A stretch of DNA of 64,000 bases from an uncultured Alphaproteobacteria bacterium (GTDB taxonomy: Bacteria; Pseudomonadota; Alphaproteobacteria; Rhizobiales; Xanthobacteraceae): positions 66,831 through 130,830 of the forward strand of contig CAWKBE010000010.1 in the NCBI GenBank assembly GCA_963847785.1, written 5' to 3'. Below the pieces are notes generated by a model. The model saw only the letters and a program-made list of their open reading frames with translations. It searched no databases and had not been told where the DNA came from. How positions within the stretch are numbered: position 1 is the stretch's first letter; each line of letters begins with the position of its first letter. The translations under genes and the position numbers were made by a program. Positions 5,102-62,334 of this stretch are shown in pieces.

Positions 5102-5292
5102 CCGGACCCCGCCGGCCGAAGAGCTGGTCCAACCTGTCGTCGTCCGGAACGCACACTTCACCAAATGTTGCCGCGAACGTGACCGCTCCCCGGCGTGACG
5201 GCGCGCGCGACCTCGGTTATAGACCGAGCGTAGTGATTTATGCAGCTGGAGCATGACCTTCCCTCTCCGGTCATGCTCGTGGAGGACAGCCC

Positions 5293-5796: not shown

Positions 5797-5845
5797 ACAC
5801 CGGCGCGATGGCGGCGCGCGGGCGGCGTGTTACTTTGCTGCCTGC

Positions 5846-7645: not shown

Positions 7646-7680
7646 AGCTTCTGAGAGGATTCGCGCGAGGAAAGCGCGGT

Positions 7681-20501: not shown

Positions 20502-20503
20502 TT

Positions 20504-20641
20504 GTCATTCCGGAACGCCGCAAAGGGGCGAGCCCGGAATCTGTAACCACGAATCGCGAATATGGATTCCGGGTTCCTCGCAAGGCCCGTCATCGGGCCG
20601 GCCAATTGAGGCCGGACCCGGTGGCTCGCCCCCGGAGTGAC
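20504..20641. repeat. REP/MITE-like intergenic element bounded by inverted repeats GTCATTCCGG ... CCGGAGTGAC
   Basis: Nested hairpins (ATTCCGG/CCGGAAT; CGGGCCGGCC...GGCCGGACCCG). It fills the whole ankyrin/cytochrome c spacer and resembles repeats common in Bradyrhizobium-type genomes. Confidence 0.65.
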
Positions 20642-20652
20642 GAAGTATCGTC

Positions 20653-21225
20653 TCACAACCCCCCGAGCCAGGTCGCCAGCGCCGCGATATCCTTTTCCGA
20701 GATTGCCAACATGAGATCGTGCATGCCAGGATTGTTGCCGCGGGCGCCGCTGCGGAAATCGGTCATCGTCTTGTCCAGATAGCCGCGGGCCTGGCCGGCG
20801 AGCCGCGGTTGCGTGCCCGCGCCTACGAATCCCTCCTGATGGCAGCTGGTGCAAACGACGGACGCATTGGCGCGCTGCGCCAATGCCGCCTCGTCGGCCG
20901 TCGCGTGCGGCTGTTGCAAATTGGGCCAGGCTTTTTTGGCGAAATATTGCGCCAGCAGCATCAGGTCTTCGCGCTCAAGTCCTTCCGCAATCGGCGTCAT
21001 TTGCTCGTTCTTGCGGCTGCCCGACTTGAAATCCCGCAGCTGGAAGAAGAGGTAACCCAGATTTTGACCCCAGATGACCGGCACCGGAATGACCTGCTGC
21101 GGCGGCACACCGTTGTCGCCGTGGCAGGCCGCGCAGATCTGCGCTTTCTCCTCGATGCTTTCGGCGTGCGCTGCCAAAGACAGAATGGATAGCGCGAGCG
21201 CCAGCGGGATCGACCGAGTTCTCAT
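20653..21225 (-). CDS. dihaem c-type cytochrome (c4/c-553-like), probable electron acceptor of the adjacent PQQ dehydrogenase
   Basis: Signal peptide MRTRSIPLALALSILSLAAHA and two CXXCH motifs (CAACH, CTSCH). Lies 85 bp downstream of the PQQ-ADH on the same strand. Confidence 0.85.
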   Translation of the reverse strand: MRTRSIPLALALSILSLAAHAESIEEKAQICAACHGDNGVPPQQVIPVPVIWGQNLGYLFFQLRDFKSGSRKNEQMTPIAEGLEREDLMLLAQYFAKKAWPNLQQPHATADEAALAQRANASVVCTSCHQEGFVGAGTQPRLAGQARGYLDKTMTDFRSGARGNNPGMHDLMLAISEKDIAALATWLGGL

Positions 21226-23040: not shown

Positions 23041-23217
23041 GAATATCCTCCCGGTGCGACCGAAGCGCTGGATAGCGACCTTATTGCAGCCGCTCCTTAT
23101 GCGCCCGGAGCGTGACAACTGGACCGCTGGCTGTCAACGGAGGAGCAGCGACGCGACGAGCGACGGTGGGCCAAAGCCCCTAAGCCGGTATCGCTTGACA
23201 GCGAGCGGCTCCGGGCT

Positions 23218-36959: not shown

Positions 36960-37168
36960 GTGCCTGACTCCGGTTAATCGGCCAACTTTGCAAACATCAG
37001 TGTGCCGCAGTTGATGTTGCAGCGCAATAAGCACTTCGGGCGTGACGCGGTTCCCTGCGAACGCAATTACTGACAGAGGGTTTCCGCAGCCGTATGCTCC
37101 GTGGGCGAAGGAAGTGCCCTGCATGCAGGGCGCTGGCCTTGCGGAAACGGGGAAATTCGGGGGGATTC

Positions 37169-48364: not shown

Positions 48365-48684
48365 TCATTTGGCGACCGATATCCGACCCGTCATGTTGGG
48401 GTGGAACTTGCAGTAATAGTCGACCATTCCCCCGGCCGTGAGAACCAAATTCTTGGTGGATCGGCAGGGATCATGACGTCCCAGTCGCCGTTGCGCGCCG
48501 TCGCCGTGTGCGTGACGAAATCCGCATTGACCCATTGGATCGTGTCGCCGACATGAGCCGAAACCTGCGGCGGCGTGAAGGCAAGCTTCTCGATGCTGAC
48601 TCGGATGCCGTCGGCGCGCGTTGGACCCGCAACGATGGCGAGAAGAAGCACGCCGAGCGTTTGGACGGCCAATCTACGGTTCAT
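48365..48684 (-). pseudogene. small blue-copper (cupredoxin, amicyanin/pseudoazurin-like) protein with one frameshift
   Basis: MNRRLAVQTLGVLLLAIVAGPTRADG...GDTIQWVNADFVTHTATARNGDWDVMIPA. After a shift near 48460: STKNLVLTAGGMVDYYCKFHPNMTGRISVAK-stop. His/Cys/His/Met ligands are split across frames. Confidence 0.7.
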
Positions 48685-48692
48685 TACGCGGC

Positions 48693-48905
48693 CTATTTGA
48701 ATTCCGCCACCACGTGATCGGCGTGTTGCTCGTGCCCCTGAAAGATTTTCAGGCCGGTCGTGAGCAAATCCTTGAGCTCCGGATTGCTGGCCGACGGAAT
48801 GAGCGTGTTCTGGAGCGCGCCGTTGACGGTTTTGTGATACGCCACCTCGTTGTCGATGTAGGCCTCGTCGAACGCAGCGCCGCTGAGGCTGGCGGGTTCG
48901 GCGCG
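48693..48905 (-). pseudogene. DUF4142-family protein, C-terminal remnant
   Basis: SLSGAAFDEAYIDNEVAYHKTVNGALQNTLIPSASNPELKDLLTTGLKIFQGHEQHADHVVAEFK-stop. The N-terminal half is missing. Confidence 0.6.
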
Positions 48906-49499
48906 TCACGGCATTCGCCATTTGTTCGCAACGGACGCCGTCGAACGGAAAGGCAGTGGTCAGCACGGGGCCGACTTGCCGTTCAAGGTCGTCGCGCAAC
49001 AACAGCCGCGCGCGATGCAAGCGGGTCTTTACGGTTTCGGGGCGCAAGCTGAGCAGTTGGGCGGTTTCCTCGATGCTCATCTCCTCAACGAGGCGCGCCA
49101 CCAAGACGACACGAAATGGCTCAGGCAGCGCGTCGATCGCGCGTTCGAGTATCCGGTGGATTTGGCGCCGGACCATGGCGCGTTCAGGATCGGGTGGAGC
49201 GGACGAGGTTGGAAACGGAATGATCAGCGCTTGCCTCGTGTACGTCGCTTCGACTCCCAATCCACCCTCGTGCGCCGGCGGCGCAGCCGGCCGAAAGCTT
49301 CATTGATGACGATGCGTGTCAGCCAGGTAGCGAGACGCAACTCGCCACGAAACTCGGCAAGTCGCGTGCGGGCTAGGCGGAACAGCCGGCAGTTGTTCTG
49401 GCGGATAATGGTTCTAACCGCCGCCTCCTCGCCACGCTGTGCCCGGGCGACGAGGTCATCTTCGCCTGCAGGCGCAACCTTGATCTGTTCTTTCGGCAT
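48905..49499 (-). pseudogene. ECF-type sigma-70 factor, degraded (internal deletion in region 2, frameshift near 49255, lost stop)
   Basis: MPKEQIKV...DDLVARAQRGEEAAVRTIIRQNNCRLFRLARTRLAEFRGELRLATWLTRIVINEAFGRLRRR lacks about 25 aa of region 2.1-2.2. Region 4 (LPEPFRVVLVARLVEEMSIEETAQLLSLRPETVKTRLHRAR) is in another frame and reads on into the DUF4142 remnant. Confidence 0.7.
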
Positions 49500-49712: not shown

Positions 49713-50807
49713 ATGTCAATCAGAAAGCGCAGTTGGGAGGGCGGTGGCGAGCAGAAAACCGCATGGGTCGTCGATTATGTTGATCAGCACGGCAAGCGCC
49801 GGCTGAAGACGTTCGATCTGAAAAAGGATGCCGATGCGTGGGCGACGAATGCTCTGCACGAAGTCGCGCAGGGCATTCACGCGCGCGATGTTAAGACCGC
49901 TATCACCGACATTGTTGATGCGTGGATCAGCCATTGCATTGACGAGGGCCTGGAACGCAGCACCATCGAGCAGCGGAAGCGGCATCTGAAATTGCACATC
50001 GCCCCATTCATCGGGCGAGTGAAATTGAGTGAGCTGACGACGCCGATGGTCAACCACTACATGGATCGGCTCCGCGACGCCGGGCGCTCAGTTGCCATGC
50101 GCCGGAAGATCCTGACAAGCCTCAGCACCGCGCTATCGTTCGCCCGCGGCCGCGGACTTGTCGCGCAGAATGTTGCCCTAGGCATTAAGGTCCGGTCGGA
50201 TGATAGGCACAAGGCCACCGGCCCGCTCAAGGCCGGGCGGGATTTTCCAACCAAGGCAGAATTAAAACTCCTGATCGATCGCGCGCCGGAACGCTGGCGC
50301 CCCTTCATCGTCACCGCGATTTTCACCGGCATGCGCGCCAGTGAGCTGCGCGGGCTGCGTTGGTGCGATGTCGATCTCGACGCCGGAACTATCCACGTGG
50401 CGCAGCGCGCGGATACGTGGGGCAAAATGGGGTCCCCGAAGTCGGCTGCGGGGACTAGGGATATTCCGCTGACACCGATGGTCGTCAATACGCTCCGGCA
50501 ATTGGAATCCGGGGGCGAGCTGGTATTCATGAATAACGCCGGCCGGGTTATCGCCTATAGCAATTTTCACACGTATGTTTGGCAGCCGCTGATCAAGCAC
50601 TGCGGACTGAGTCACGAATTTCACAGCCTTAGACATGCAGCAGCGAGCCTGTTTATCGAGCAGTTGGGCTGGTCGCCGAAGCGTATCCAAGCTGTGCTGG
50701 GTCATTCGTCCATCACCATGACTTACGACAGGTACGGGCATCTGTTCGAGAGCAAGGATGATGGCACCGCGATGAAGCGGCTGGAAGCTGCGATCATCGC
50801 CGCCTGA
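49713..50807 (+). CDS. tyrosine-type site-specific recombinase (phage integrase family)
   Basis: 364 aa with an N-terminal SAM-like/arm-binding part and a catalytic domain with TGMRASELRGLRW (Arg I), HSLRHAAAS (H-x-x-R) and GHSSITMTYDRYGH (His/Tyr). Confidence 0.92.
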   Translation: MSIRKRSWEGGGEQKTAWVVDYVDQHGKRRLKTFDLKKDADAWATNALHEVAQGIHARDVKTAITDIVDAWISHCIDEGLERSTIEQRKRHLKLHIAPFIGRVKLSELTTPMVNHYMDRLRDAGRSVAMRRKILTSLSTALSFARGRGLVAQNVALGIKVRSDDRHKATGPLKAGRDFPTKAELKLLIDRAPERWRPFIVTAIFTGMRASELRGLRWCDVDLDAGTIHVAQRADTWGKMGSPKSAAGTRDIPLTPMVVNTLRQLESGGELVFMNNAGRVIAYSNFHTYVWQPLIKHCGLSHEFHSLRHAAASLFIEQLGWSPKRIQAVLGHSSITMTYDRYGHLFESKDDGTAMKRLEAAIIAA

Positions 50808-50879
50808 CCGCCGTTGCCCAACGTGTCATGCACTCTCTAAATTGGTTTATTTGCTTCCGTGGACGCACCTCACCCATCT

Positions 50880-50911
50880 TAAGTAAGTAAGTAAGTAAGT
50901 AAGACAGTAAG
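50880..50911. repeat. tetranucleotide microsatellite (TAAG)6 + ACAG + TAAG
   Basis: Six perfect tandem TAAG units at 50880-50903 and one more at 50908-50911, 73 bp after the integrase stop. Gives stop codons in all three forward frames. Confidence 0.95.
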
Positions 50912-51313
50912 ATAAACCCGAGCCGTGTCCGGTGGTGAGATCGGAGTGACTCGGAAAAGCAAGACTTAGGCACAGTGAAGCGCCTTTATCTGCTTTCCGA
51001 GGGACTGTCTGTCCGTATGGAGCCGACCGTCGCTTATCGGAAGCCGCCCGCTTTCTGGCTTGCGCGGACAAACTAGGGCGTCTTCTTCAAACAAGCCGTT
51101 TGCCAGTGGTGGGCACGCCCTCATCTTTCGATGAGCAAGACCCACGGCGCCTATCACTAGTCTCACCTAAGCGCCTCTCGGCCCGCAACTGCACGCCTTT
51201 TATAACGAGTAACGTCATTTTACAGGTGGGGCCCAAGATCAAAACCGATCATCGCGGCTCTGCTCGATTCGCGCCGCACCGTATGATCAACAAACGCCCG
51301 CGCGCGGCGCGCA

Positions 51314-51349
51314 ATGAAGCGGCTGGAAGCGGCAATTGTTGCGGCCTAG
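51314..51349 (+). pseudogene. orphan copy of an integrase gene 3' end (last 11 codons)
   Basis: ATGAAGCGGCTGGAAGCGGCAATTGTTGCGGCCTAG (MKRLEAAIVAA-stop) versus integrase 50772-50807 ATGAAGCGGCTGGAAGCTGCGATCATCGCCGCCTGA (MKRLEAAIIAA-stop). A stop lies 10 codons upstream, so only the tail survives. Confidence 0.7.
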
Positions 51350-51656
51350 AAATTTGCATTCGGTGCGATGCCGTGGTACCAAATTGGAGTCGGCATCCAC
51401 GCAAAGGGTGCCGGTCGGATGAACCTCGAGGACCGAAAGACGGATCGGGGCGAACGACAGTGCGGCACTCCAACGCCGCAAGGTAGGCTCCCGCCGACAG
51501 AAGGGGAGATCGGATGGTCGAGCCCGGACTAACCCAGCCGGAGCCATCCCAGCGAAAATCGGGTTAGCGATCGTCGTCCAAAGGCGGTCGGGCCATCCCA
51601 GCCTAGCGGGAATTGCGAAGCAGCAATTCATCACGCTTCCGGCCTGGGAGAATGTC

Positions 51657-51902
51657 ATGTCGCCGACCGTTGACCGCGAGCGAGATCGCGGGGAAACCCA
51701 ACTAAAGATGGTGTGGGGCGCCGCAGCCATCGGCGCCGTCATTAGCCGCGATCCCCGTCAAACCTATTACCTGCTGGAAAACGGCCTGATCCAAAGCGCC
51801 AAGCGGATCGGCAGGCAGTGGGTCGCCAACGAAGACGATCTGCGGCGCGAATTTTCAAACGCCCGCGACGAGACATGCGCGCCGGCGACGGTGCGGTCAT
51901 GA
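51657..51902 (+). CDS. excisionase/AlpA-like helix-turn-helix DNA-binding protein
   Basis: 81 aa with GGGAGA RBS. MVWGAAAIGAVISRDPRQTYYLLENGLIQSAKRIGRQWVANEDDLRREF fits the HTH_17/Xis pattern. Confidence 0.65.
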   Translation: MSPTVDRERDRGETQLKMVWGAAAIGAVISRDPRQTYYLLENGLIQSAKRIGRQWVANEDDLRREFSNARDETCAPATVRS

Positions 51903-52135
51903 GCGACGCTGTAGAGGTGGACGGCGAGCATACGGCTGTATTCTTCGGGCCCGGCGAGCAGCCGCTAATCGCCATCGAATATTACCCGGAAGCTGGAGTG
52001 TGGGGCTGGCATCTGGTGCAGCATCCAGACCTTGGCGCAGTTCCGTTCGACTCGAAAGAGGAGGCTATGGCGGACGCTAGCGCCGTCTTCGCCCGCTTCG
52101 GATGGCGCTGTGCCAGTTGGGGGTCGGCGCAATGA
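51899..52135 (+). CDS. hypothetical protein
   Basis: 78 aa. Its ATG overlaps the previous stop (ATGA). No recognisable domain. Confidence 0.5.
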   Translation: MSDAVEVDGEHTAVFFGPGEQPLIAIEYYPEAGVWGWHLVQHPDLGAVPFDSKEEAMADASAVFARFGWRCASWGSAQ

Positions 52136-52236
52136 GCGACGAGCGGTTCACCCAGATCGTCAGCGATCTTGTCGCGCGTGCCGCGGCGGGTTCTCTTTTT
52201 CAGCGCGTGACCCCGTCGGTAAACGCGAGGCGTTGA
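52132..52236 (+). CDS. hypothetical small protein (34 aa)
   Basis: ATGA overlap with the preceding ORF (MSDERFTQIVSDLVARAAAGSLFQRVTPSVNARR). Below the track threshold. Supported only by translational coupling. Confidence 0.3.
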   Translation: MSDERFTQIVSDLVARAAAGSLFQRVTPSVNARR

Positions 52237-52269
52237 TGCGCTGAAATCTATAAACCCTTGGTGCTCTTA

Positions 52270-53718
52270 ATGTTTCCAGAGCACGACGACCCGCTGACTT
52301 ACGAGGACCTGCAGGCGCTCGCCGCCGATCTCGGCCGGCCGTTGAAGACGCTATTTGCCCAGGCCGACTCCACTGACCCCTGGATGGCCGGAGTGCCGGC
52401 GCGCAAAGCCAAGGCGGAATGGCTCGCCGCTCTCTGGCGGCAATATGGCGCCGCTCCAGGAACGCACATCCGGCGCTTCCATTATTTGCTGGTCTCGCAA
52501 CCGGACGTGCGGATGCCGGAAGGCGAGCGCTACCTCAACACCGACGAGTGCTACAAATTTCTCACCGCTGCCTCAATCGCCGCGCGGCACCTCGACCTTA
52601 TCGACGCGCGCGACGTCGCCGACCAGCGCAACGAACCGGCAAAAATCAATTACGACGCCGAGGAGAAGGAGGCCGCGGTCGACGTCGATGGTGACCTTGA
52701 TCGATACGCGGCGCCGGAGTTCGAGCTCCCGACGCTCACAGTCACCGCGCCGAAGATCCCACAGCCCTATGTCGTCTCAATCTGGATCGAGAAGTCCACC
52801 ATGAACGACGTCATCGATCCGCTGGCCGCGCGCTACGGCGTCAACGTGCTCCCCGGTACCGGCGAGACCTCGATCACGCGCTGTATCGAACTCGCCGATC
52901 GTGCCGACGCGGTCGGGCGCCCTGTGCGCGTCCTCTACGTCACCGACTTTGATCCGGCCGGTCGGTCCATGCCGCTCGCGGCCGCGCGTAAGATCGAGTT
53001 TGAACTGCGCAAGAACATGCCCCACCTCGACGTCCAAGTACGCGATATCGCGCTGACGCTTGAGCAGTGTCGCCGATATCGTCTACCGCGGACGCCGATC
53101 AAGAAAGGCGAGAGCCGCGGTGCCAAATTCGAAGCGCGCTTCGGCGAGGGCGCAACCGAGCTCGACGCGCTCGAAGCACTACATCCCGGTGAACTGGCGC
53201 GGATTCTGGAACGCGAGATACTTCGCTATTACGACACCGATCTTGCCACCGAGGTTGAGAGCGTCAGGAGCGAAGCCCAGACCGAGCTCGGCCGCATCAC
53301 TACCGAGGTTCACGATCAGCACGTCGATCAGATCCAGGAATTGCGCGACGAGCACGAAAGGGTGCTGGCGGCGGTCAACGCCTACAGGGTAAAGGCGCGG
53401 CCGATCTTCGAGCTGATCCGGACCGACCTTGAGAGCGCGGCGCCGAGCTTCGATTGGCCCGATGGCAGTTTTGCGGCCGCCGAGGACGAAGACCCGCTGT
53501 TTGATTCAACGCGTGATTACATCGAGCAGATCGATCGTTACAAAGAACACAAGAACGAGCCGACCGAGCGCTGGTCCGAAACGCGCGTCTGCGCGCACTG
53601 CAAAGCAAAGTTCACCGCGCTCAAGAGCCACGCGCGGTTCTGCAGCAAAAAATGCGGCAATGATTGGCATTATCAGCAGCAGCCGTTAAAGCGGCAACGG
53701 AAGGCAGCGCGGCCATGA
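52270..53718 (+). CDS. Top6A/Spo11-like protein: putative 5Y-CAP + Toprim domains, coiled coil and C-terminal zinc ribbon
   Basis: HIRRFHYLLV (R-x-x-x-Y as in the Top6A/Spo11 catalytic Tyr motif, Tyr at 52483-52485). About 100 aa later comes VSIWIEKSTMNDV (Toprim Glu), LPGTGETSITRCIEL and VLYVTDFDPAGRSM (DxDPxG, 52945-52962). C-terminal CAHCKAKF...RFCSKKCGNDWHY. Start ATG 52270 (TTG 52258/GTG 52261 also possible). Confidence 0.55.
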   Translation: MFPEHDDPLTYEDLQALAADLGRPLKTLFAQADSTDPWMAGVPARKAKAEWLAALWRQYGAAPGTHIRRFHYLLVSQPDVRMPEGERYLNTDECYKFLTAASIAARHLDLIDARDVADQRNEPAKINYDAEEKEAAVDVDGDLDRYAAPEFELPTLTVTAPKIPQPYVVSIWIEKSTMNDVIDPLAARYGVNVLPGTGETSITRCIELADRADAVGRPVRVLYVTDFDPAGRSMPLAAARKIEFELRKNMPHLDVQVRDIALTLEQCRRYRLPRTPIKKGESRGAKFEARFGEGATELDALEALHPGELARILEREILRYYDTDLATEVESVRSEAQTELGRITTEVHDQHVDQIQELRDEHERVLAAVNAYRVKARPIFELIRTDLESAAPSFDWPDGSFAAAEDEDPLFDSTRDYIEQIDRYKEHKNEPTERWSETRVCAHCKAKFTALKSHARFCSKKCGNDWHYQQQPLKRQRKAARP

Positions 53719-54065
53719 CCCGGCGGCGCTCCCTGATCAACAAAACAGAGAGAACCATGACTAAAAAAGATGACCAACACATTTTGACCTATCGGGTGGG
53801 AAAATGGCCGATAGCTAAAAAAGATGACGTGTGGACCTATCGGCGGGTGAACCTAGCGCGCGAGAACCCCGAGAAGCCTGTCGTTGACGAGGATACCGGC
53901 GCGCGGATACCCGATCGCGAGTGCGTGACAGCTTCCGGGGCACTGCTGGCAACAGCACCTTGGCGGATGCGGGTGATTGCATTTTTCTACCTCAACTTTC
54001 TTCGGCTGCGCGGTCACGGCCTGAACCCCTTTTATTGGTGGTGGATTTTCAGGGGTAAACCGTGA
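53715..54065 (+). CDS. hypothetical protein with C-terminal hydrophobic helix
   Basis: ATGA overlap with the previous gene. 116 aa with an APWRMRVIAFFYLNFLRL helix. No known domain. Confidence 0.45.
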   Translation: MTRRRSLINKTERTMTKKDDQHILTYRVGKWPIAKKDDVWTYRRVNLARENPEKPVVDEDTGARIPDRECVTASGALLATAPWRMRVIAFFYLNFLRLRGHGLNPFYWWWIFRGKP

Positions 54066-54084
54066 AGACGTTTCGCGCTGCATA

Positions 54085-54288
54085 ATGACTAGTTTCAAAA
54101 TAGTGCCGCGGCCATGGCTGAGCCCGGAGTTACTAGCGGCCTACGCCGCCTTTGATGACGCCGAGACGCCGGCGGAGCTCGACGCCGCCTATGATGCACA
54201 TTGGTCCCGCATCACGATCCCCGAGGAGCAACTTAGCTTCGAACTTCAGTACATCTTCGAGGTCGAGCGCATGGGTTACATATTATGA
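54085..54288 (+). CDS. hypothetical small acidic protein
   Basis: 67 aa, Asp/Glu-rich (AAFDDAETPAELDAAYDAH...IPEEQLSFELQYIFEVE), immediately upstream of the RNAP gene. Confidence 0.45.
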   Translation: MTSFKIVPRPWLSPELLAAYAAFDDAETPAELDAAYDAHWSRITIPEEQLSFELQYIFEVERMGYIL

Positions 54289-54376
54289 CCCGGCGGCTGC
54301 GGAGGGCGCTGCGGGAGCGGGTGTCGTGACCTGGCGACTGTGGGTACATTTTCCACTAGAGTAGAGAGAAAGCGTC

Positions 54377-56722
54377 GTGCCTGGTAAGGGCCATATTCGG
54401 GGCTGGAATCGTAAGCGGAAACAGCGCCGCCTAGCCGCCGACGTACGACTTTCCGTTGAGCTGTTCGGCCAGTACTTGGCCGACTTCCTCTCCCAGCCGC
54501 CAGTGGATGACGTGGAGGCACAACGGGACGAATGGCGGCCCACACGGCCGCCTGGAGATTTGGGTGCGTTGGTGTCCAAGTTAGAGCCGTCTGACCTAGC
54601 GCAGGCGGTATTGGCACCACTTTTACACCGTATTCATTCGGGTTGGGCGGGCGGCAAAATCAAGAAAGGCCAGCGCGACCGTCACCGCGCCGAACTGTGT
54701 GAGATCGTTGGGCGCCATGTCCACCGGCTTTTATTGTATCGGCATTTGATCGAGACCGGCACGCACCGACCCCTATTGGCCGCAATCACCAAACCCAAGC
54801 GCCGCAAGTATCCCAAGGGTGCGCCGCGGCCACCGCGCGGGCGACCGAAGAAGGTTCGAACGGCCTTTCAATTTGATGATTGGGTTGACATTGACTTCGT
54901 CTATGTCGGCGACTGGTTGGTTGACTGCGCCACGAGTCTCGACTGCTTTGACTTCAACGAATACGGGCTTCCTTGCATTGCCGAGCATTGGAAGGCGGAA
55001 ATTCGCGACCTGTACCGTGAGGCGCTTCGCGGGCCTATCACCGTACTGCCGAGGCGGGAGCCGCCACCGTTACGTACTGGGTGGTACAACGACCGAGGTG
55101 TGGCGTTCTGCAACCGCCTTGAGGCACGCGAGGCTATTGATGACGCCTTCAAGAAGACCATCACCATACTCGACGAGAGCAGGATTACGTTTAACGAGAA
55201 CCTGGAAGCGAACAAGGAAAGCATGGTTGAGACCGAAGTCCCCGGCGATTTCGTTAGGCAGCACGTTGCCGGCATCCACGCCTTGGAGTGCGTGCCGCTG
55301 CGTATCGATCCGCTAATGCGCGATCTGGTAGAGCAGTTTGGCACCGATGCTAAGAAGCGTCGAAAGATTGGCTGGAAGCTGGAGCGTGACCGCTTCGCCG
55401 TTCGCGGCGATCTTGACCATGCCGATGCGCTCGGCGAAGAAACCTTTCATATCGAATATGGGGTTGACTACCGCGGCCGGCTTGATCCCGTGACACATCT
55501 CCACTTCGCTCGCGACGATCGCATCCGCAGCCTGTTCCGGTTTGCCAACGGCAAGCGGTTAGGTGGGCGTCTCGCCGGGCGAGCAGGTGGTTTCACCGAT
55601 CTAGAAATGTTGGAGTTCAACATCGCTAACCGTTATGGCGTCGTCGACAAGAAGCCGTGGGCTGATCGACTAGCGTGGGTACGCGAGCACGCCGGCATGA
55701 TCGAGGAGGTCGCGGCGCGGCCATTCAGTTCGTCCAGTTTGTGGTCGAAGGCAGACGAGCCGTTTCAGTTCGTCAGTGCGTGCCGTGAGTGGATGGCGGC
55801 GCGCGAGGACCCTAACTTTGAGACAACACTGCCACTCTGTTGGGACGGAAGTTCTAATGGTTTTCAGCACAAAGTTATGCTCTCCCGCGATCACGAGGGT
55901 GCTGTTTACGTCAACCTGGTTAACGCCCCGTCTGGCCAACCGCAGGATATTTACCTGCACGTTGCCAAAGGCGTCATCGAGAAACTGCATGAGACCACCG
56001 ACAAGGAGGCGGCGTGGTGGCGCGAGCGTATTGGCAATTGGTCGCAACAGGATTTGCGAAAACTATTTAAGCAGCCGGTCATGACGATTCCCTACAACGC
56101 CGACCGCAGTATCCCTTCAGGCATATCGAAGGCGCTTCAGTCCATAGACCGGGGTGAGAAGCCACCGGACGGTCATGCGGGATATCTACAACGGATGATG
56201 ATGGGTGTTGTTCAAGATTTGATGCCGCGCGCCATGGAGCTGCGGTCGTGGATAACAAAACTCGCCACCCAGTGCAGTATTGAGGGGCGCTATGTCAAAT
56301 GGGTTAGTCCCAGCGGATTTCCGGTTGAGAACCACCACGAGACGCTCTCAATTGGATGCGTCTACGGTATAGATGGCACAAAATTCAACGTCACCAAGCC
56401 CGGTGGACTTGATACCGTAGGCTGCGTGAATGGCCTCGTTCCTAACTTTATTCACTCGCTGGAAGTTGCACATTTAGTTCGGGTTGCGTGTGCCACAAAG
56501 GCGGAGGGTATCGAAACGCTACCACTCCACGACTGCTACGCCGCCCTGGCGCCAGACGGCAGCGCCCTGCACCGGATTATTCGGCGCGAGTTGTTTCTGA
56601 TGTACCGTGAAAGAGACTACATCCACGAGCTGCGCGCCGCCAACGGTGTGGTGATGCCACTGCCACCATACGGGGATCTGAACCTCGAACTCATACCTGA
56701 CGCAGAATACAGTTTTGCTTGA
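54377..56722 (+). CDS. single-subunit DNA-dependent RNA polymerase, T7/T3/SP6 (phage-type) family
   Basis: 781 aa. LPLCWDGSSNGFQHKVMLSRD...VNLV...QDIYLHVAKGV (motif A). RKLFKQPVMTIPYN (motif B). KWVSPSGFPVENHHE, VPNFIHSLEVAHL, LPLHDCYA (motif C), and tail PLPPYGDLNLELIPDAEYSFA versus T7 ...PALPAKGNLNLRDILESDFAFA (T7 sequence from memory). Confidence 0.93.
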   Translation: MPGKGHIRGWNRKRKQRRLAADVRLSVELFGQYLADFLSQPPVDDVEAQRDEWRPTRPPGDLGALVSKLEPSDLAQAVLAPLLHRIHSGWAGGKIKKGQRDRHRAELCEIVGRHVHRLLLYRHLIETGTHRPLLAAITKPKRRKYPKGAPRPPRGRPKKVRTAFQFDDWVDIDFVYVGDWLVDCATSLDCFDFNEYGLPCIAEHWKAEIRDLYREALRGPITVLPRREPPPLRTGWYNDRGVAFCNRLEAREAIDDAFKKTITILDESRITFNENLEANKESMVETEVPGDFVRQHVAGIHALECVPLRIDPLMRDLVEQFGTDAKKRRKIGWKLERDRFAVRGDLDHADALGEETFHIEYGVDYRGRLDPVTHLHFARDDRIRSLFRFANGKRLGGRLAGRAGGFTDLEMLEFNIANRYGVVDKKPWADRLAWVREHAGMIEEVAARPFSSSSLWSKADEPFQFVSACREWMAAREDPNFETTLPLCWDGSSNGFQHKVMLSRDHEGAVYVNLVNAPSGQPQDIYLHVAKGVIEKLHETTDKEAAWWRERIGNWSQQDLRKLFKQPVMTIPYNADRSIPSGISKALQSIDRGEKPPDGHAGYLQRMMMGVVQDLMPRAMELRSWITKLATQCSIEGRYVKWVSPSGFPVENHHETLSIGCVYGIDGTKFNVTKPGGLDTVGCVNGLVPNFIHSLEVAHLVRVACATKAEGIETLPLHDCYAALAPDGSALHRIIRRELFLMYRERDYIHELRAANGVVMPLPPYGDLNLELIPDAEYSFA

Positions 56723-56730: not shown

Positions 56731-56946
56731 ATGACAAGAGTTCAACAAATAATCGATCAGCTCGAAGAGTTGCATCGGCAAGCGCACGAAATCTTCGACG
56801 CGCGCGTTGAGGTTATTTTAGCCGGACAACCCTATGGTACGAGTCTCGGCGCAACCAAGGTGAATTGCATCTTTGCGCCGGCTGGACGGACGCTCGACTA
56901 CATCAAGGCGTTGAAGAACTTGCGGGACGGAAAGACCGCAAAGTAG
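56731..56946 (+). CDS. hypothetical protein
   Basis: 71 aa from ATG 56731, just after the RNAP stop (MTRVQQIIDQLEELHRQAHEIF...). Followed by a strong hairpin. Confidence 0.45.
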   Translation: MTRVQQIIDQLEELHRQAHEIFDARVEVILAGQPYGTSLGATKVNCIFAPAGRTLDYIKALKNLRDGKTAK

Positions 56947-56972: not shown

Positions 56973-56995
56973 AAGGCCCGCCTCGCGCGGGCCTT
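56973..56995 (+). terminator. stem-loop terminator candidate
   Basis: AAGGCCCGC-CTCGC-GCGGGCCTT, a perfect 9-bp stem 27 nt after the stop at 56946. Only a weak T tract follows (CGCATTTCTG). Confidence 0.5.
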
Positions 56996-57086
56996 CGCAT
57001 TTCTGCGTCAACCGACGCGGAAACACGCCGGCATTGTGTCGGCATTCTAAATCAACGGCCCTGCAGCACGGGGCGATGGTGGACCT

Positions 57087-57324: not shown

Positions 57325-57972
57325 ATGTCAACTAATGAAGAAGCTATGCCTTGGGCCTTAACCGAGGTTCAATCTAAAGCAATAACGGATCGTCAGATCG
57401 CGAAAGCACTCGCAAAGTTTGCCGAAGATGACGGTGGTGGTCCCGGTGGACCGTTGCTCAAGTTCAAGAAGGACGAACATTTTATTCTCGGCGCCGACAA
57501 GATTGCGGAGGGCACCGAGTACATTGCCCATCCGCAAGAAGTCCGTAAGGGCTGGAGTAAGTTCGAGAACAAAAAGCTCGTCGACGAAAAGACCGGCAAG
57601 CCGGTTCTCGGGTTTGTCGTTCCCGAGCGCGAGGAGTTGGGCGATCTCGACCCCAAGAAATGGCCGAAGAACGACGCGGGCCAACCTGCTGATCCGTGGG
57701 TGAAGCAGTCGTTCTTGCCATTGGAAAACGTTACGACCGGACAACTGGTTGTGTTCGTGACGAGTTCCCATGGCGCTCGCAGTGCGATCGCGACCTTGTG
57801 CGGAGCGGCCGCGCGGAATGTCCATCGCGGCAATCCGCGCATTCGCCTTCGCGTCGGTTCCTACAAACACTCGAAATTCGGGCGTGTTCAGGTGCCGGAA
57901 TTCACGGTGATTGGTTGGGACGATCCGCCCATCTCTGCGGACGAGCCGTTCAACGACCAATTGTCTCTGTAA
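57325..57972 (+). CDS. hypothetical protein (positional candidate for a phage ssDNA-binding protein)
   Basis: 215 aa, coding-like, with an acidic/aromatic C-terminal tail ISADEPFNDQLSL. Lies between RNAP and DNAP where T7-like phages carry gp2.5. No motif-level support. Confidence 0.5.
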   Translation: MSTNEEAMPWALTEVQSKAITDRQIAKALAKFAEDDGGGPGGPLLKFKKDEHFILGADKIAEGTEYIAHPQEVRKGWSKFENKKLVDEKTGKPVLGFVVPEREELGDLDPKKWPKNDAGQPADPWVKQSFLPLENVTTGQLVVFVTSSHGARSAIATLCGAAARNVHRGNPRIRLRVGSYKHSKFGRVQVPEFTVIGWDDPPISADEPFNDQLSL

Positions 57973-58006: not shown

Positions 58007-58025
58007 GGGAGTTTAGGAAACTCCC
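58007..58025 (+). terminator. short stem-loop after ORF 57325-57972
   Basis: GGGAGTTT-AGG-AAACTCCC, preceded by the all-frame stop string TAACTAACTAA (57970-57980). Confidence 0.35.
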
Positions 58026-58052: not shown

Positions 58053-58661
58053 ATGTCGATAATTACCTCAACATCCTCATCCACCGCAGCGCCGATTAAC
58101 GTATTCGATTTCGAGGCGATCAGATTACCGCCGAACTTTGAACGCGAAGCCGGTGTGCGCAAGCAACTCACGCTGGTGCGGGTCCGCCAGCCGCGAAAGC
58201 AGGAATGGGTTCGAGTTCATCCGGAGCATCGCGCCGAAGTGGCCACGATTGTCTTCAAGGAGAACGAAGAAGCCAAGCCGGAGATCTACCTGGTCGCACC
58301 GGACGTCGCGATGCAACTGAGCGACGAAATTACCTATCAGACGATTTACCTCGCAATCAATCGGCAGGGTGAACCGTTCCTCTGGCCATGCCGCAAACCG
58401 AAATTAGAAAGCCGAAGCGGCGATATCGCTGCGACGTCAAGGATCGAAGCCGCCGAGACGGCCATGACGCGCCAAGTGCGGGTGCAGTGGCGATCGCCGG
58501 CTTTCGAGATGTCATTCCGCGATGGCCACATCCCCGATGTCGATCCGATTTGGCCAGACAAGCCTTTCGGTGAGCTGGTCGAGATCGCGTTTCATCGTAC
58601 CGGAATGTTCATCCACGACCCTAATCATCAGGTGATCAAGATTTTGCAGGGGAGAAACTAA
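58053..58661 (+). CDS. hypothetical protein
   Basis: About 202 aa (ATG 58053; GTG 58041 possible). Its stop is 1 nt before the DNAP start. No recognisable domain. Confidence 0.5.
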   Translation: MSIITSTSSSTAAPINVFDFEAIRLPPNFEREAGVRKQLTLVRVRQPRKQEWVRVHPEHRAEVATIVFKENEEAKPEIYLVAPDVAMQLSDEITYQTIYLAINRQGEPFLWPCRKPKLESRSGDIAATSRIEAAETAMTRQVRVQWRSPAFEMSFRDGHIPDVDPIWPDKPFGELVEIAFHRTGMFIHDPNHQVIKILQGRN

Positions 58662-58662: not shown

Positions 58663-60390
58663 ATGATTCTCCCTTACAAACACATCATTGCAGTCGACTT
58701 CGAGTTTGAATTTGGCGGCCATGAAGGCAATCCGCCGCGACCGGTCTGCATGGTCGCGAAGGAGCTACGTACGGGCCAAGAATGGCGGGTGTAGCGCGGG
58801 GACTTCGGGCCCTCGCCTCCGTTCCCTACCGGGCCGGACAGCTTGTTTGTAGCGTACTACGCTAGCGCGGAGTTAGGTTGCTTCCACGCACTCGGCTGGC
58901 AACCGCCGGCGAACGTGCTCGATCTCTTCACCGAATTCCGGGCACGCACTAATGGCACCGATTGGCTGGAGGGCCGCAGTCTGATCGCCGCCCTACAGTA
59001 TTTTAACGTCGACGGCATCGGCGCCACCGAGAAGCAAGGCATGCGCGAGCTAGTCCTTAGAGGGCCACCATGGACCGAACAGCAGCGCGCCGACATTCTG
59101 GATTACTGCGCCAGCGATGTTTACGCTCTCGAACGTCTACTGCCGCGGATGCTGCCCGAGATTGATCTGCCCCGTGCGCTCCAGCGTGGGCGCTATATGC
59201 GAGCGGCGGCGGCGATGGAATATGCCGGCGTGCCGATCGACGTCGATACGCTTAAGGAGCTACGCGATCATTGGGAGGATATAAAGGAACAACTGATCGC
59301 CGATGTTGATCGGGACTACGGCGTGTTCGACGGTACCACTTTTAAGACGACGCTATTCGAGGAATATCTAATAAGACAGGGCATCCCGTGGCCGCGATTG
59401 CCGTCTGGGCGTTTAGCTCTTGACCGCGACACCTTCAAAGAAATGGGCCGCGGCTATCCAATCATCGGCCCATTAAGGGAGCTAAAGCATGCGCTGAGCG
59501 AAATGCGATTGAACGCACTCCAAGTCGGCGAGGATGGCAGGAATCGGTGTTTGCTCAGCGCGTTTGGCACAAAGACTGGAAGAAATAGTCCGAGCAATAC
59601 GAAATTCATTTTTGGTCCCAGCGTATGGCTGCGTGGGTTGGTTAAACCGGAGCTCGGGCACGCAGTCGCCTATATCGATTGGAGTTCACAAGAGGTCGGC
59701 ATCGCCGCGGCGGTGTCTGGCGATTTGGCGATGCAATCCGATTACCAAAGCGGCGATGTTTATCTCGCGTTCGGTAAGAGTGCCGGAATCCTGCCACTGG
59801 ATGCCACCAAGGAGTCACATGGCGCGCAACGTGATGCATTAAAGGCGTGCGTACTGGGGCTTCAATACGGCATGGGCGAGGAAACATTGGCGGAACGGAT
59901 CGGCAAGCCGCGCATCGTTGCCCGCGAATTAATACGCGCGCATCAGCAGCGTTACCGGAAATTCTGGGACATGGCTGACAGCGTGATTTCGATCGCGATG
60001 GATCACCGTCCCGTGCAGACGGTAGGCGGTTGGCCCCTACAGGTCTGCTCTGATCCGAGCCCGAACTCGGTGATGAATTTTCCCATGCAAGCCAATGGTG
60101 CCGAGATGCTCCGGCTGGCCTGCTCCATGGCGACAGAGCGCGGTGTCGAGGTGCATGCCCCCGTCCACGACGCGGTGCTGATCGGCAGTTCGATTGAGCA
60201 CATTGATCGCGACGTCGAGGCCATGCGCGGGATTATGGAGGAGGCGTCCCGGCTGGTATTGGGCGGCTTCACCATTCCGACCGAAGCCAAGATCATCCGC
60301 TATCCCGATCGCTACATGGACAAGCGCGGTGTGGTGATGTGGGAGCGCGTGATGCGGTTACTTGCCGATCTGCGCAAGGCGGTGGCGTGA
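58663..60390 (+). pseudogene. family-A DNA polymerase with 3'-5' exonuclease domain, interrupted by one in-frame amber codon (58792-58794)
   Basis: ATG 58663 MILPYKHIIAVDFEFEFGG (Exo I) ...QEWRV-TAG-RGDFG...FVAYYASAELGCF (Exo II), YCASDVYAL (Exo III). Pol motif A AYIDWSSQEVGIAA, motif B RDALKACVLGLQYGMG, motif C VHAPVHDAVL. Same frame on both sides of the TAG. Confidence 0.85.
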
Positions 60391-60770
60391 TGGCCGCAGA
60401 TTGGGAAATCACGCCGGACATGGCGAAGGATATCCGGCGGAGCCGCCGACCTAAGCACAAGGAGGAGCTGTTTGCGAAGCTATGGCGCTGGCATTTGCAC
60501 TTGTTGCTAGAGAAGCGCGCCGGCGGCCGGATGCTTCGGCTTTTCCTTGTGCTTGTGGATGAGGACTTCAATCATTTCGGAAAGCCGTTCACGGTCACTA
60601 CCGATATGGCCGAGAGGGCGGGCGTGGATCGCCACTTGAAGGCAAAAATCCTGCTCGCCTTAGAGCAGTGGGGTCTCATTTTTCTAGAGCGTCTGGGGGC
60701 TCCCAAGAACCCGAGAGTGTCCCTGCGACAACGGGAAGGGAGGGGGCAAAACCCGTTTCAATGTGGATGA
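60390..60770 (+). CDS. hypothetical protein, possibly winged-helix DNA-binding
   Basis: 126 aa. Its ATG overlaps the DNAP stop (TGATG). TTDMAERAGVDRHLKAKILLALEQWGLIFLER looks wHTH-like. It precedes the iteron-like repeats. Confidence 0.45.
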   Translation: MAADWEITPDMAKDIRRSRRPKHKEELFAKLWRWHLHLLLEKRAGGRMLRLFLVLVDEDFNHFGKPFTVTTDMAERAGVDRHLKAKILLALEQWGLIFLERLGAPKNPRVSLRQREGRGQNPFQCG

Positions 60771-60783
60771 AACAACACCAGTA

Positions 60784-60850
60784 ATGTGGTCATTCCAAAC
60801 CACCTATGTGGTCATTCCAAACCACCTATGTGGTCGAAACACTACCACCC
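60784..60850 (+). repeat. tandem direct repeats (2 perfect 22-bp units + 1 degenerate unit), iteron-like
   Basis: ATGTGGTCATTCCAAACCACCT at 60784-60805 and 60806-60827, then ATGTGGTCGAAACACTACCACCC at 60828-60850. Confidence 0.9.
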
Positions 60851-60914
60851 GTAAGAGGTGGTTCCGGTTGTCTGAACAGATTTTCCGCGTCGATAAGTGG
60901 AGTCTCTGCCGGGG

Positions 60915-61742
60915 TTAGGCTGCCAAGCGGACTGGCAGTTCGTTGAAGTAGGCTTGATCGGGTGTGGTGCCGTCAAGGCTCGAATGCGGTCTCCGGCCGT
61001 TGTAGAAGTCCAGGTATTTGCCGATAGAAGAGCGGGCCTCGCTGACACTGTCGTAGGCCTTCAGATACACCTCCTCATATTTGACGCTGCGCCACAGCCG
61101 CTCGACGAAGACGTTGTCTCGCCAAGCTCCTTTCCCGTCCATGCTGATCGCAATGTCGTTGTTGGCGAGCACGCCGGTGAACGCCGAGCCCGTGAACTGC
61201 GAACCCTGATCGGTATTGAAGATGTCCGGCTTGCCGTGACGAGCCAGAGCATCCTCCAGCGTCTCGACGCAGAATGCCGCCTCCATCGTGATCGACAGCC
61301 GCCATGACAGCACGCGACGGCTGAACCAGTCGAGCACCACGGCCAGGTAGACGAAGCCCCGCGCCATCGGGATGTAGGTGATGTCCATCGCCCACACCTG
61401 GTTCGGCCGCGTGACCGCCGTGGCGCGCAACAGATACGGATAGATCTTGTGGCCGGGCCCGGGCTTCGTGGTGCGCGGACGGCGATAGAGCGCCTCTATC
61501 CCCATCCGTTTCATCAGCGTTTTGACATGCCGACGGCCGATCTTGCACCCCTCAGCGACCAGCAAGCCTCTCAACATCCGCGAGCCGGCGAAAGGGGACT
61601 CCAAATGCAGCCGGTCGAGACGCCGCATGATTGCGAGGTCGGCTTCCGGTACTGGGCGCGGCAGGTAGTAGACGCTGCCACGGCTGATGCACAGAACGTC
61701 CGCCTGCTTGGTGATCGGCAAATTGTGCTCACGGTCGATCAT
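60915..61742 (-). CDS. IS3-family transposase OrfB (DDE integrase-like catalytic domain)
   Basis: WAMDITYI (D), FNTDQGSQFTG (D), DNVFVERLWRSVKYEE (E), and RPHSSLDGTTP. Confidence 0.92.
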   Translation of the reverse strand: MIDREHNLPITKQADVLCISRGSVYYLPRPVPEADLAIMRRLDRLHLESPFAGSRMLRGLLVAEGCKIGRRHVKTLMKRMGIEALYRRPRTTKPGPGHKIYPYLLRATAVTRPNQVWAMDITYIPMARGFVYLAVVLDWFSRRVLSWRLSITMEAAFCVETLEDALARHGKPDIFNTDQGSQFTGSAFTGVLANNDIAISMDGKGAWRDNVFVERLWRSVKYEEVYLKAYDSVSEARSSIGKYLDFYNGRRPHSSLDGTTPDQAYFNELPVRLAA

Positions 61743-62050
61743 CGCTTTGCGCTCAGCAATCCCGCCTTGCTGAGCGCTCCTTCCAAAAAATCGTTCTCCA
61801 GCGTCAGCGCTCCGATCTTGGCGTGCAACGACTTCACGTCAACGGCCGGTTGCGCTGCTCCGTTGCCGCCGCCGGGACCAAAAACATCGGCAGCCCCACC
61901 CTCAAGCTGCGCCTTCCACGATGTGATCTGGTTGGGGTGGACGTCGAACTGCTCTGCCAGCTGAGTCAATGTTCGATCGCCCTTGACGGCGGCAAGCGCC
62001 ACCTTTGCTTTGAAGGCCGGTGTGTGGTTCCGGCGCGGTCGTCTTGTCAT
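61739..62050 (-). CDS. IS3-family transposase OrfA (HTH)
   Basis: MTRRPRRNHTPAFKAKVALAAVKGDRTLTQLAEQFDVHPNQITSWKAQL. ATG 62050 chosen over the track start at 62104. Confidence 0.9.
   Translation of the reverse strand: MTRRPRRNHTPAFKAKVALAAVKGDRTLTQLAEQFDVHPNQITSWKAQLEGGAADVFGPGGGNGAAQPAVDVKSLHAKIGALTLENDFLEGALSKAGLLSAKR
61749..61790 (-). promoter_or_regulatory. programmed -1 ribosomal frameshift signal of the IS (slippery T TTT TTG + hairpin)
   Basis: On the minus strand, GAT TTT TTG is followed 6 nt later by GCGCTCAGCAA-GGCGGGA-TTGCTGAGCGC (perfect 11-bp stem, 61749-61777). The -1 frame reads without stops into the OrfB ATG (..FFGRSAQQGGIAERKAMIDREH). Confidence 0.7.
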
Positions 62051-62334
62051 GGTCTCTCCTGATTCGCGGCGCACAGCGTGCCCGCCGTCAGGCAGAAACT
62101 CCACTTAGCGTCTTGTGCAGATTTCCGAGGCCACCTCTGTATCCCTGTCTTATGTCTTGGGTCTTAGCTTATGTCTTTTGTCAAACAAACCGCGCGGCGA
62201 AGTGCGCTGGCTTACTGCTTCCAGAATTCTTATTGGACCACCCGCGAGACGAACCGCCGGGCTACTCACGACCGCGGGATCAAGCCCGGCGGCATTCGGG
62301 ATCGGGCGCGCCGGCGAATAAGCAGGAGGCGCCC

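Follow-up and report, generated by a model that had tools for sequence, protein, structure and literature searches.

A T7-type single-subunit RNA polymerase and its linked 71-residue protein in an integrated, phage-derived element of an uncultured Xanthobacteraceae bacterium

An open reading frame (ORF) for a T7-like RNA polymerase (RNAP) amid the chromosomal genes of an uncultured soil alphaproteobacterium raises the question of what enzyme it encodes, what kind of element carries it and whether either is still in use. The locus lies in a 64,000-nucleotide stretch of DNA (the window) from a member of the Xanthobacteraceae (positions 66,831 to 130,830 of contig CAWKBE010000010.1, assembly GCA_963847785.1). 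A first-pass annotation, made from the sequence letters and their ORFs, had described the product as a compact T7-family RNAP with a canonical catalytic core and an N-terminal half of no recognisable kinship. The family assignment and the intactness of the gene held, while the orphan N-terminus did not: that part appears to be a diverged T7-type domain with the same ratio of nonsynonymous to synonymous substitution rates (dN/dS) as the catalytic half. We consider it probable that the gene specifies a complete T7-type RNAP of a lineage found only in metagenomes, co-encoded with a 71-amino acid (aa) protein, p71, in a decaying phage-derived element that lacks virion genes.

The RNAP gene (54377-56722, plus strand) has a GTG start, 781 codons followed by a stop, and no internal stop codon, as the first-pass annotation had it. 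Its product matches the Pfam family RNA_pol (PF00940) over residues 407-754 (E 5.2e-61; 207 bits against a cutoff of 22) and PHROG 414 (phrog_414, "RNA polymerase") over residues 345-781 (E 7e-94). By BLASTP, residues 361-781 share 27% identity with T7 gp1 (taken from NC_001604), and all the landmarks named earlier fall into register: the motif A aspartate Asp490 (55844-55846) with T7 D537 (LPLCWDGSSNG aligned to LPLAFDGSCSG), K565 with K631, Y573 with Y639, and His718-Asp719 of motif C (56528-56533) with H811-D812, the positions formerly assigned to these residues being correct. PNFIHS corresponds to PNFVHS, WVSPSGFPV to WVTPDGFPV and the C-terminal YSFA to FAFA. Both palm aspartates, on whose conservation the assignment had been made to depend, thus align with those of T7. 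Asp490 is invariant in the alignments of both the close family (at least 65% identity to the RNAP) and the wider clade described below, as is the DxRGR motif (D364, R366-G367-R368); in the clade alignment H718 is invariant, D719 nearly so, and K565 and Y573 are invariant or nearly so. Together with the structural model, profile alignment, dN/dS and tree considered below, these matches predict a complete T7-type single-subunit DNA-dependent RNA polymerase with palm, fingers, thumb, catalytic residues and C-terminal foot.

The structure prediction that had been proposed as a check agrees with this assignment. An AlphaFold2 (AF2) model, built from a shallow alignment, has predicted local distance difference test (pLDDT) values of 80-90 at residues 300-781 and 30-60 at residues 1-290, and a Foldseek comparison of the model with the PDB returned human POLRMT, yeast Rpo41 and T7 RNAP (E ~1e-27, TMq 0.55-0.61). 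The equivalent of the T7 specificity loop, residues ~652-684 (56330-56428), corresponds by BLASTP to T7 739-770 minus 8 aa and is modelled as a β-hairpin with strands at 655-663 and 669-678. Within the family, where the overall mean pairwise identity is 0.79, variability is greatest in the specificity-loop region (0.65) and in an insert at 263-291 (0.62). The protein falls 102 aa short of the length of T7 RNAP, close to the 100 or so estimated at first sight; however, the cultured Autographiviridae RNAPs fetched for comparison measure 794-841 aa, and a length of 781 aa is therefore not exceptional, contrary to the emphasis first laid on its compactness.

The N-terminal part required profile methods. 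Matches of hidden Markov models (HMMs) to the RNAP begin at residues 339-346, and tblastn alignments to some phage RNAPs extend back to residues 168-224. We cut the 23-sequence clade alignment (A6) to residues 1-224, before any similarity visible to the eye, and compared it by hhalign with the N-terminal part of an alignment of T7 and 20 T7-like RNAPs. Residues 19-223 matched T7 63-268 with 97.5% probability (E 5.9e-12), and residues 1-320 compared with T7 1-345 gave 99.4% (E 3.6e-21). These matches, and full-length relatives at 33-40% identity, contradict the view that residues 1 to about 450 bear no recognisable similarity. The Pfam model PF14700 (RPOL_N) gave no HMM match to the RNAP even at E 10, the profile-profile homology lying outside that model. 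The alignments indicate that the N-terminal half is a diverged T7-type promoter-binding domain rather than a novel one and that the RNAP is homologous to T7 RNAP nearly from end to end.

Several motifs of this domain are common to the 23 proteins, namely PPPGxLG, LAxxALxPLL and AGxWLxxCA...F..D..G.P.I, while the clade motif RDPVxLPxxxPPPDWTGW corresponds to T7 PPKPWTG and the clade segment GVNALQRVPLRID to T7 AINIAQNTAWKIN. In the hhalign alignment the RNAP has no counterpart of T7 residues 1-62. The intercalating β-hairpin is represented by residues 188-202 (54938-54982), aligned by hhalign with T7 ~225-250 and about 9 residues shorter than in T7; AF2 places strands 191-193 and 199-201 here, between helices 171-187 and 203-217. 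The conserved proline-rich PPPGxLG motif occupies the position of the AT-rich recognition loop of T7. A basic insertion of low confidence (139-163, pLDDT <50) contains the sequence PRGRPKK (residues 153-159; 54833-54853), which resembles an AT-hook and may bind DNA; RGRPKK is invariant in the five of five family members that cover the region, and P0021, the clade member closest to the family, has RGRP as well.

Among 1.84 billion representative proteins searched with HMMER, 5859 relatives of the RNAP were retrieved. Those of 710-820 aa at 33-40% identity align from about residue 12-57 through the C-terminus, and the identity to any cultured phage enzyme is 23-33%. The family itself comprises about 11 protein clusters, all from ENA/JGI metagenome assemblies. 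Among three of its members, whose RNAPs are ~75% identical, dN/dS is 0.11-0.17 for the RNAP, with 0.13-0.16 for the N-terminal and 0.11-0.16 for the C-terminal part; the fact that the two parts do not differ consistently implies that the whole RNAP is under purifying selection. Phylogenetic placement, another check that had been advised, was done with a neighbour-joining tree of 60 sequences over 382 columns of the catalytic region. It joined the RNAP family to a compact clade that includes two IMG/VR contigs in 99 of 100 bootstraps, and human POLRMT fell with the classical T7-like enzymes, grouping with the family or the clade in 0 of 100.

The 185,579 GTDB species representatives, IMG/VR and the JGI metagenome contig collection yielded no family member, and cultured phages and plasmids no clade RNAP. 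A further word-indexed protein search with the clade alignment returned the same 16 proteins and nothing more, and a search of the literature found no published description of the clade. These alignments and searches place the RNAP in a lineage of its own, whose enzymes measure 710-890 aa and have been met only in metagenomes.

The second component is p71 (56731-56946, plus strand), which begins 9 nt after the RNAP stop codon and is modelled by AF2 as three helices (pLDDT 83). Between family elements its identity is 80-92%, where that of the RNAPs is ~75%. The linkage extends well beyond the family. A homologue with 39% identity (tblastn) lies directly 3' of the clade RNAP in the IMG/VR contig L170, and another, seen on inspection of the sequence after the RNAP of L171, was confirmed by the profile scan of loci described below. 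A separate profile search collected about 70 protein clusters, none of them annotated; three distant homologues were looked up, and all three had an RNAP gene (of 787, 890 or 790 aa) immediately upstream, the 890-aa product being a full-length clade member by BLASTP and PHROG. Homologues of p71 directly follow the clade RNAPs in L170, L171, L284-286, L287-289 and the P0180 contig. When 289 loci were scanned with the p71 profile, matches occurred at clade loci alone, always just after the RNAP gene, and none in the ~190 loci with classical T7-like RNAP genes. Thus a p71 homologue adjoins the RNAP in every clade locus that has downstream sequence, in three diverged subgroups, and the RNAP-p71 linkage is solid. 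The protein has no family match in Pfam, PHROGs, PADLOC, PDB profiles or Rfam, and no fold match in the PDB.

The two genes appear to form a unit. Downstream of p71, a GC-rich hairpin, GGCCCGCCTCGCGCGGGCC, followed by a T-rich tail (56975-57003, plus strand) resembles a terminator and closes the unit; hairpin and tail are kept in all five aligned elements, and in L284 an element GGGTTTTTAT stands at the equivalent place after the p71 homologue p72. Upstream, about 25 nt before the RNAP start codon, a non-coding conserved block, GGTACATTTTCC (54343-54354, plus strand), is common to the window, L167 and L168. It occurs once in the window and is possibly part of a host-type promoter or of the 5' leader.

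The RNAP-p71 pair sits in an integrated phage-derived element of ~11 kb, excluding insertion sequences (IS). Its order is integrase, variable genes, RNAP-p71, p215, p202, a family-A DNA polymerase (PolA), a small protein, iterons and a few small ORFs, and the family contigs share a core of, in order, the RNAP, a 71-aa protein, a ~215-aa protein, a ~202-aa protein, a 575-aa PolA, a ~126-144-aa protein and a tandem array of 21-23 bp. The same arrangement of core genes is seen again in L167, L168, L005 and L282, whose integrases and flanks differ. There are two or three types of integrase: it is of the SAM_3 type in the window, of the Arm-DNA-bind_3/P4 type in L005 and L167 and of another type in L282, and the host genes at the right flank vary likewise (a GAF-cyclase gene in L001, a YkuD gene in L005). 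In L281, positions 4333-8908 are ~100% identical to window positions 49713-54288, from the integrase to p67, while the RNAP gene carries 258 substitutions; the genes left of the integrase of L281 (a resolvase and others) also differ. An identical left arm beside a diverged RNAP implies recombination between co-circulating elements of the family, and this mosaic, together with the differing integrases and flanking genes, indicates that we are dealing with independent elements and not with one locus.

No PHROG or Pfam match to terminase, capsid, portal, head or tail proteins was obtained in the window element, L005, L167, L168, L281 or L282, and host-like genes flank the element within ~11-17 kb. 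Within the conserved core, no gene for a primase or helicase was recognised.

Clade RNAPs also occur in other kinds of elements. L170 is phage-like, with a scaffold/capsid-like protein, a TerS-like phrog_8771 protein, TerL and a PolA-primase fusion; in this contig and in the phage-like L171 the phrog_8771 protein stands just before TerL. L284-286 carry a p202 homologue, PolA, a p126-like protein with repeats, a TerS-like protein, the RNAP, p72 and TerL, and then a host gene. L287-289 (ENA ERZ272572xx) are ~8-kb islands between host genes with a Toprim primase, AAA_25, an integrase, the RNAP, the p71 homologue p83 and a TerS-like phrog_8771 protein, and with no DNA polymerase or capsid genes. 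The L287-289 and L284-286 types were present in 84 and 59 index blocks of the contig collection, respectively, and 24 contigs were read for each. Members of the RNAP clade thus occur in real phages as well as in integrative elements reduced in several ways, a distribution reminiscent of phage satellites.

The tail of the conserved core has the look of a replication origin. An iteron-like array (60759-60835, plus strand; TRF score 104) consists of 2.4 perfect copies of the 22-bp unit ATGTGGTCATTCCAAACCACCT and further degenerate copies, the perfect tandem repeat covering 60784-60835; the earlier statement that no motif of at least 15 nt is repeated in the intergenic regions of the element had missed it. 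Arrays of 21-23 bp units occupy the same place, right after the small gene 3' of PolA, in L167 (9131-9171), L168 (6661-6757), L005 (9197-9276) and L284 (4526-4609), and one is found at 16380-16548 of L001. The units are specific to the element (AGGTGCACGCTATAGCTACGG in L167, CACCCATGTCATGGGGTGTTTGG in L168, TTAGTGGGTGAAATACCCCTCT in L005), occur nowhere else in the elements and vary in copy number, from 2.4 in the window to ~6 in the nearly identical L001. A fixed position, element-specific sequence, changing copy number and confinement to the array are characteristic of origin iterons to which a protein particular to the element binds, and the 22-bp repeat accordingly looks like a set of iterons rather than of promoters. 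The small protein adjoining the array is the obvious candidate for its reader. In the window this is p126 (60390-60770, plus strand), a candidate iteron-binding initiator; it has no family match, is 55-58% identical in L005 and L168, has a weak homologue after PolA in L284 and is replaced by a non-homologous 126-aa protein in L167.

Just past the iterons, a T-rich block, CCCGTAnCCCnGTCTTATGTCTTGGGTCTT, is common to all elements in one copy each. The conserved single-copy block at 62137-62167 (plus strand; CTGTATCCCTGTCTTATGTCTTGGGTCTTAG), which contains short TGTCTTA repeats (TRF 62146-62182) and aligns directly after the iterons in L168, L005 and L167, is a candidate origin core or unwinding element, or else a promoter.

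The present copy shows clear signs of decay. PolA (58663-60390, plus strand; Pfam DNA_pol_A 3e-17, phrog_17 5e-41), with 3'-5' exonuclease and polymerase domains, is a pseudogene here: codon 44, which encodes Trp (TGG) in the intact relatives, is an amber TAG (58792-58794; the reading ends ...GQEWRV*), and the neighbouring DNA polymerase is broken, as had been noted at the outset. The PolA of the family has an N-terminal DxE exonuclease motif and is intact at 574-575 aa in L167, L168 and L005; the sister contigs of the window bear other lesions (a 1-nt indel in L001, two indels in L283, deletions in L002), and both L002 and L004 carry deletions. An IS3-family element (approximate ends 60870-62125, minus strand; ORFs 60915-61742 and 61739-62104) is inserted between the iterons and the conserved block. 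Its ORFs correspond to L001 16606-17433 and 17430-17741 (minus strand), with products that match rve/HTH_21 and HTH_Tnp_1, and the insertion is absent from this site in L167, L168 and L005. L001 has a second IS3 copy at 20017-21152 in the opposite orientation, the two copies bracketing the right arm of the element. The amber codon and the IS3 between the iterons and the T-rich block suggest that this copy is replication-defective, while its RNAP and p71 are intact.

What the enzyme transcribes was approached by searches for promoters. No exact k-mer of 10-14 nt is shared by, or repeated across, five elements; a position weight matrix (PWM) of the post-iteron block finds one copy per element and no dispersed set; and scans for sigma-70 and terminator consensus sequences did no better than on shuffled sequences. 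Undetected promoters are common for RNAP groups other than that of T7, and the failed searches do not argue against the function of the RNAP. We propose that the host RNA polymerase would express the RNAP-p71 unit, and that the element RNAP, probably with p71, would then transcribe the downstream genes p215, p202, PolA and p126 and those of the right arm. Since the conserved core has no recognisable primase or helicase, transcription by the element RNAP may also prime PolA at the iteron/T-rich region, in the manner of the T7 primary origin and of mitochondria. More tentatively, and with the odds rather against it, the RNAP and p71 could constitute a two-component transcription system in which p71 is an obligate initiation, specificity or regulatory factor that offsets the reduced N-terminal promoter-opening elements; the pair would then define an undescribed class of small virion-less integrative elements, satellites or mini-replicons, that bring their own RNAP for gene expression and for replication priming at an iteron origin.

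Several points weigh against the reading that we favour, that of a complete RNAP of a metagenome-only lineage, linked to p71, in a decaying virion-less element. No promoter was found, nor any dispersed repeated motif by exact k-mer, mismatch or PWM searches. The role proposed for p71 is drawn from gene linkage. The N-terminal 290 residues of the RNAP are of low confidence in the AF2 model, and the tree of 382 columns is a neighbour-joining one with a single mitochondrial sequence fragment. At the ends of the element there are no tRNA genes and no flanking direct repeat of at least 10 nt; since attachment sites were not found, the lack of virion genes is judged from contigs of 9-22 kb and from host-like flanks. 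Some of the frameshifts in related contigs, single-base indels of the kind seen with long reads, may be assembly errors.

The favoured reading must also be set against others. The family might consist of phage satellites that keep integration, replication and their own transcription and obtain capsids from a helper of the same lineage, the RNAP-p71 pair allowing their genes to be expressed independently of the helper or in competition with it. We give this distinctly less than an even chance. The window element has the size (~11 kb) and content expected, an integrase and a replication module of PolA and iterons without virion genes, and its combination of integrase, primase or DNA polymerase, and TerS, as distributed among the related elements, follows the gene logic of known satellites (PMC9618062). 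Related small elements carry a TerS-like gene alone (L287-289) or with TerL (L284), and the phrog_8771 proteins to which these belong precede TerL in the phage-like contigs. However, searches of the window-type elements detected no gene for packaging, TerS-like or other, no helper phage came to light and IMG/VR holds no family member; the argument is one from analogy, because no satellite described in the literature searched carries a single-subunit RNAP. That the locus is instead a dead remnant of a T7-like prophage, with an RNAP ORF open by chance and of no present function, is unlikely. The amber codon in PolA, the differing PolA lesions and deletions in the sister contigs, the IS3 copies in the origin-like region and further right, and the want of virion genes would all fit, but the same reduced architecture recurs in elements with RNAPs ~25% different (dS ~1), with other integrases and flanks and with an intact 575-aa PolA. 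This recurrence, the low dN/dS over the whole RNAP, the conservation of p71 and the mosaic recombination between elements imply that the family is maintained and that only this copy may be dead.

That the Xanthobacteraceae host has domesticated the RNAP for some function in the cell, with decay confined to the other parts of the element, would account for one chromosomal site in the host population at which the RNAP is intact in at least six contigs and PolA is variously lesioned. Yet these copies differ by a handful of substitutions over 12 kb, and near-identity over such a length means that an intact RNAP says little about selection. The want of family members among the GTDB species representatives argues against a fixed host gene, and the family elements lie at different sites with different integrases; we hold this explanation to be very improbable. 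The idea that the RNAP represents an alphaproteobacterial cryptic-prophage lineage ancestral to mitochondrial RNA polymerase has even less to commend it and is next to negligible in our estimate. It draws on the alphaproteobacterial host and on the best PDB sequence match of the RNAP, which is human POLRMT (E 2.7e-39), ahead of T7 RNAP (E 6.8e-28). This match denotes no special relationship, because all 150 metagenomic RNAPs among the matches listed outscore POLRMT (138 bits), those outside the family with 168-404 bits; moreover, the RNAP has no PPR domain or N-terminal extension, and the idea was rejected on the tree, where POLRMT keeps company with the classical T7-like enzymes.

The remaining genes of the element complete its description. 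The tyrosine integrase (49713-50807, plus strand; Pfam Phage_integrase 3e-21 and Phage_int_SAM_3), with a SAM_3-type N-domain, lies on the left side of the element and is also called in L001-L003. A (TAAG)x8 tetranucleotide repeat lies just 3' of its gene (50880-50911), and a sigma-70 region-4 domain protein is encoded immediately to its left (48391-49260, minus strand). A DUF4142 gene is present at the left junction in L002 and not in L001; the left junction region is therefore polymorphic. Between integrase and RNAP, outside the conserved core, a 482-aa protein (p482; 52270-53718, plus strand) matches phrog_6247 (3e-26, residues 169-354, topoisomerase-like) and, at its C-terminus, HNH phrogs (1e-5), with no Pfam or PADLOC match; it is present only in window-type elements and L281 and may be accessory cargo.

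Within the core, p215 (57325-57972, plus strand) has an acidic C-terminal tail, is 73-80% identical across elements and has no Pfam, PHROG, PDB or PADLOC match. Between p215 and p202 a hairpin, GGGAGTTT-AGG-AAACTCCC (58007-58025), is retained in other elements with changes on both sides, its covariation support being weak (covariation term 0.04 kcal/mol). p202 (58053-58661, plus strand), 67-74% identical in the family and without any database match, always stands before PolA, as does its homologue in L284 (E 2e-35). At the p202 position L169 encodes a non-homologous 201-aa protein (6164-6769) that ends in ...EPDDAIPF, an acidic tail typical of bacterial single-stranded-DNA-binding proteins, which hints that this slot may hold such a function. 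Apart from the phrog matches of the 482-aa protein, p215, p202, p126, p71, p482 and the small ORFs gave nothing significant in Pfam, PHROGs, PADLOC, PDB sequence profiles or Rfam. The host part of the window is chromosomal, with 62-68% G+C, and includes genes for a DUF4175 protein, argininosuccinate lyase and a B12-dependent acyl-CoA mutase. The lyase (ArgH) shares 86% identity with its counterparts in Xanthobacteraceae MAGs, which places the host among the uncultured members of that family (Hyphomicrobiales, Alphaproteobacteria). Positions 35646-37121 (minus strand) and 40829-42823 (plus strand) between them encode the mutase, of 665 aa (MM_CoA_mutase and B12-binding), and a zinc-ADH-family protein (ADH_N and ADH_zinc_N); their domain content and size suggest the ethylmalonyl-CoA mutase and crotonyl-CoA carboxylase/reductase of the ethylmalonyl-CoA pathway. 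A PQQ dehydrogenase is encoded at 21310-23115.

Two things are new here: a hitherto undescribed clade of T7-type RNAPs, found in metagenomes alone, whose genes are followed by that of p71 or a homologue, and satellite-like elements that bear such an RNAP. Enzymes of the single-subunit kind are widely used in biotechnology and serve as a model of how promoters are recognised. In this deep branch, with its altered N-terminal domain and strictly linked small protein, there could be a bacterial parallel to the factor-dependent initiation of mitochondria, and new orthogonal pairs of polymerase and promoter could be drawn from it. Integrative elements of this small size that encode both an RNAP and a DNA polymerase but no virion proteins would broaden the known range of satellite-like mobile elements. 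On how the mitochondrial RNAP arose the finding is silent, since the lineage is not close to POLRMT.

Compared with the RNAPs of T7 and other Autographiviridae (T7 gp1 and the enzymes of Burkholderia phage Bp-AMP, Ralstonia phage Anchaing, Xylella phage Prado and Agrobacterium phage Atu_ph02), the present enzyme shares the fold, the equivalents of D537, D812, K631, Y639 and H811, the DxRGR motif, the specificity-loop hairpin, an FAFA-type C-terminus and a homologous N-terminal domain, and the smaller phage enzymes are of similar length. It differs from T7 RNAP in forming a separate clade, in having no PF14700 match and no counterpart of T7 1-62, in its shorter intercalating hairpin, in a proline-rich motif in place of the AT-rich loop and in the basic RGRP insertion. 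The setting differs too: p71 follows the clade RNAPs and is missing from classical loci, and the gene does not lie in a podovirus genome, whereas the RNAP of the Autographiviridae belongs to a ~40-kb genome with portal, capsid, tail-tube, internal-core and terminase genes.

With POLRMT and Rpo41, its top sequence and fold matches in the PDB, the enzyme has the catalytic domain in common, but it is without their PPR domain or N-terminal extension and shows no phylogenetic affinity to them. POLRMT depends on TFB2M/Mtf1 as accessory factors when it opens promoters, and it primes DNA replication as well. These two roles, factor-dependent initiation and replication priming, are those that we propose for the RNAP with p71, although p71 has no detectable similarity to TFB2M, Mtf1 or anything else in the PDB.

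Temperate or integrase-carrying T7-like phages, such as Pseudomonas phage LUZ100 (PMC10134795) and T7-like cyanophages (PMC8776855), likewise combine an integrase with a single-subunit RNAP in one integrated or integrable element. These are complete podoviruses of ~40 kb with a full structural module, whereas the present element measures ~11 kb and has no virion genes that we could detect. Phage satellites such as the P4-like elements, PICI, PLE, PICMI and the marine VEIMEs (PMC9618062, PMC10803314) are, like this element, small and integrative, with an integrase, a replication module of their own (primase or DNA polymerase, iterons) and no capsid genes. The window-type element differs from them in the lack of a detected packaging gene or helper phage, TerS-like phrog_8771 proteins being found in the related L284 and L287; among satellites, none that encodes its own single-subunit RNAP was reported in the literature searched.

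The layout of the core also recalls a replication origin of T7 itself. At the T7 primary origin, transcription by T7 RNAP from tandem promoters beside an AT-rich region primes synthesis by a family-A polymerase. The core of this element likewise unites genes for an RNAP and a family-A polymerase with an array of repeats that adjoins the conserved T-rich block; its repeats, however, are element-specific iterons of 21-23 bp next to the gene of a small protein, an arrangement more like that of a plasmid origin.

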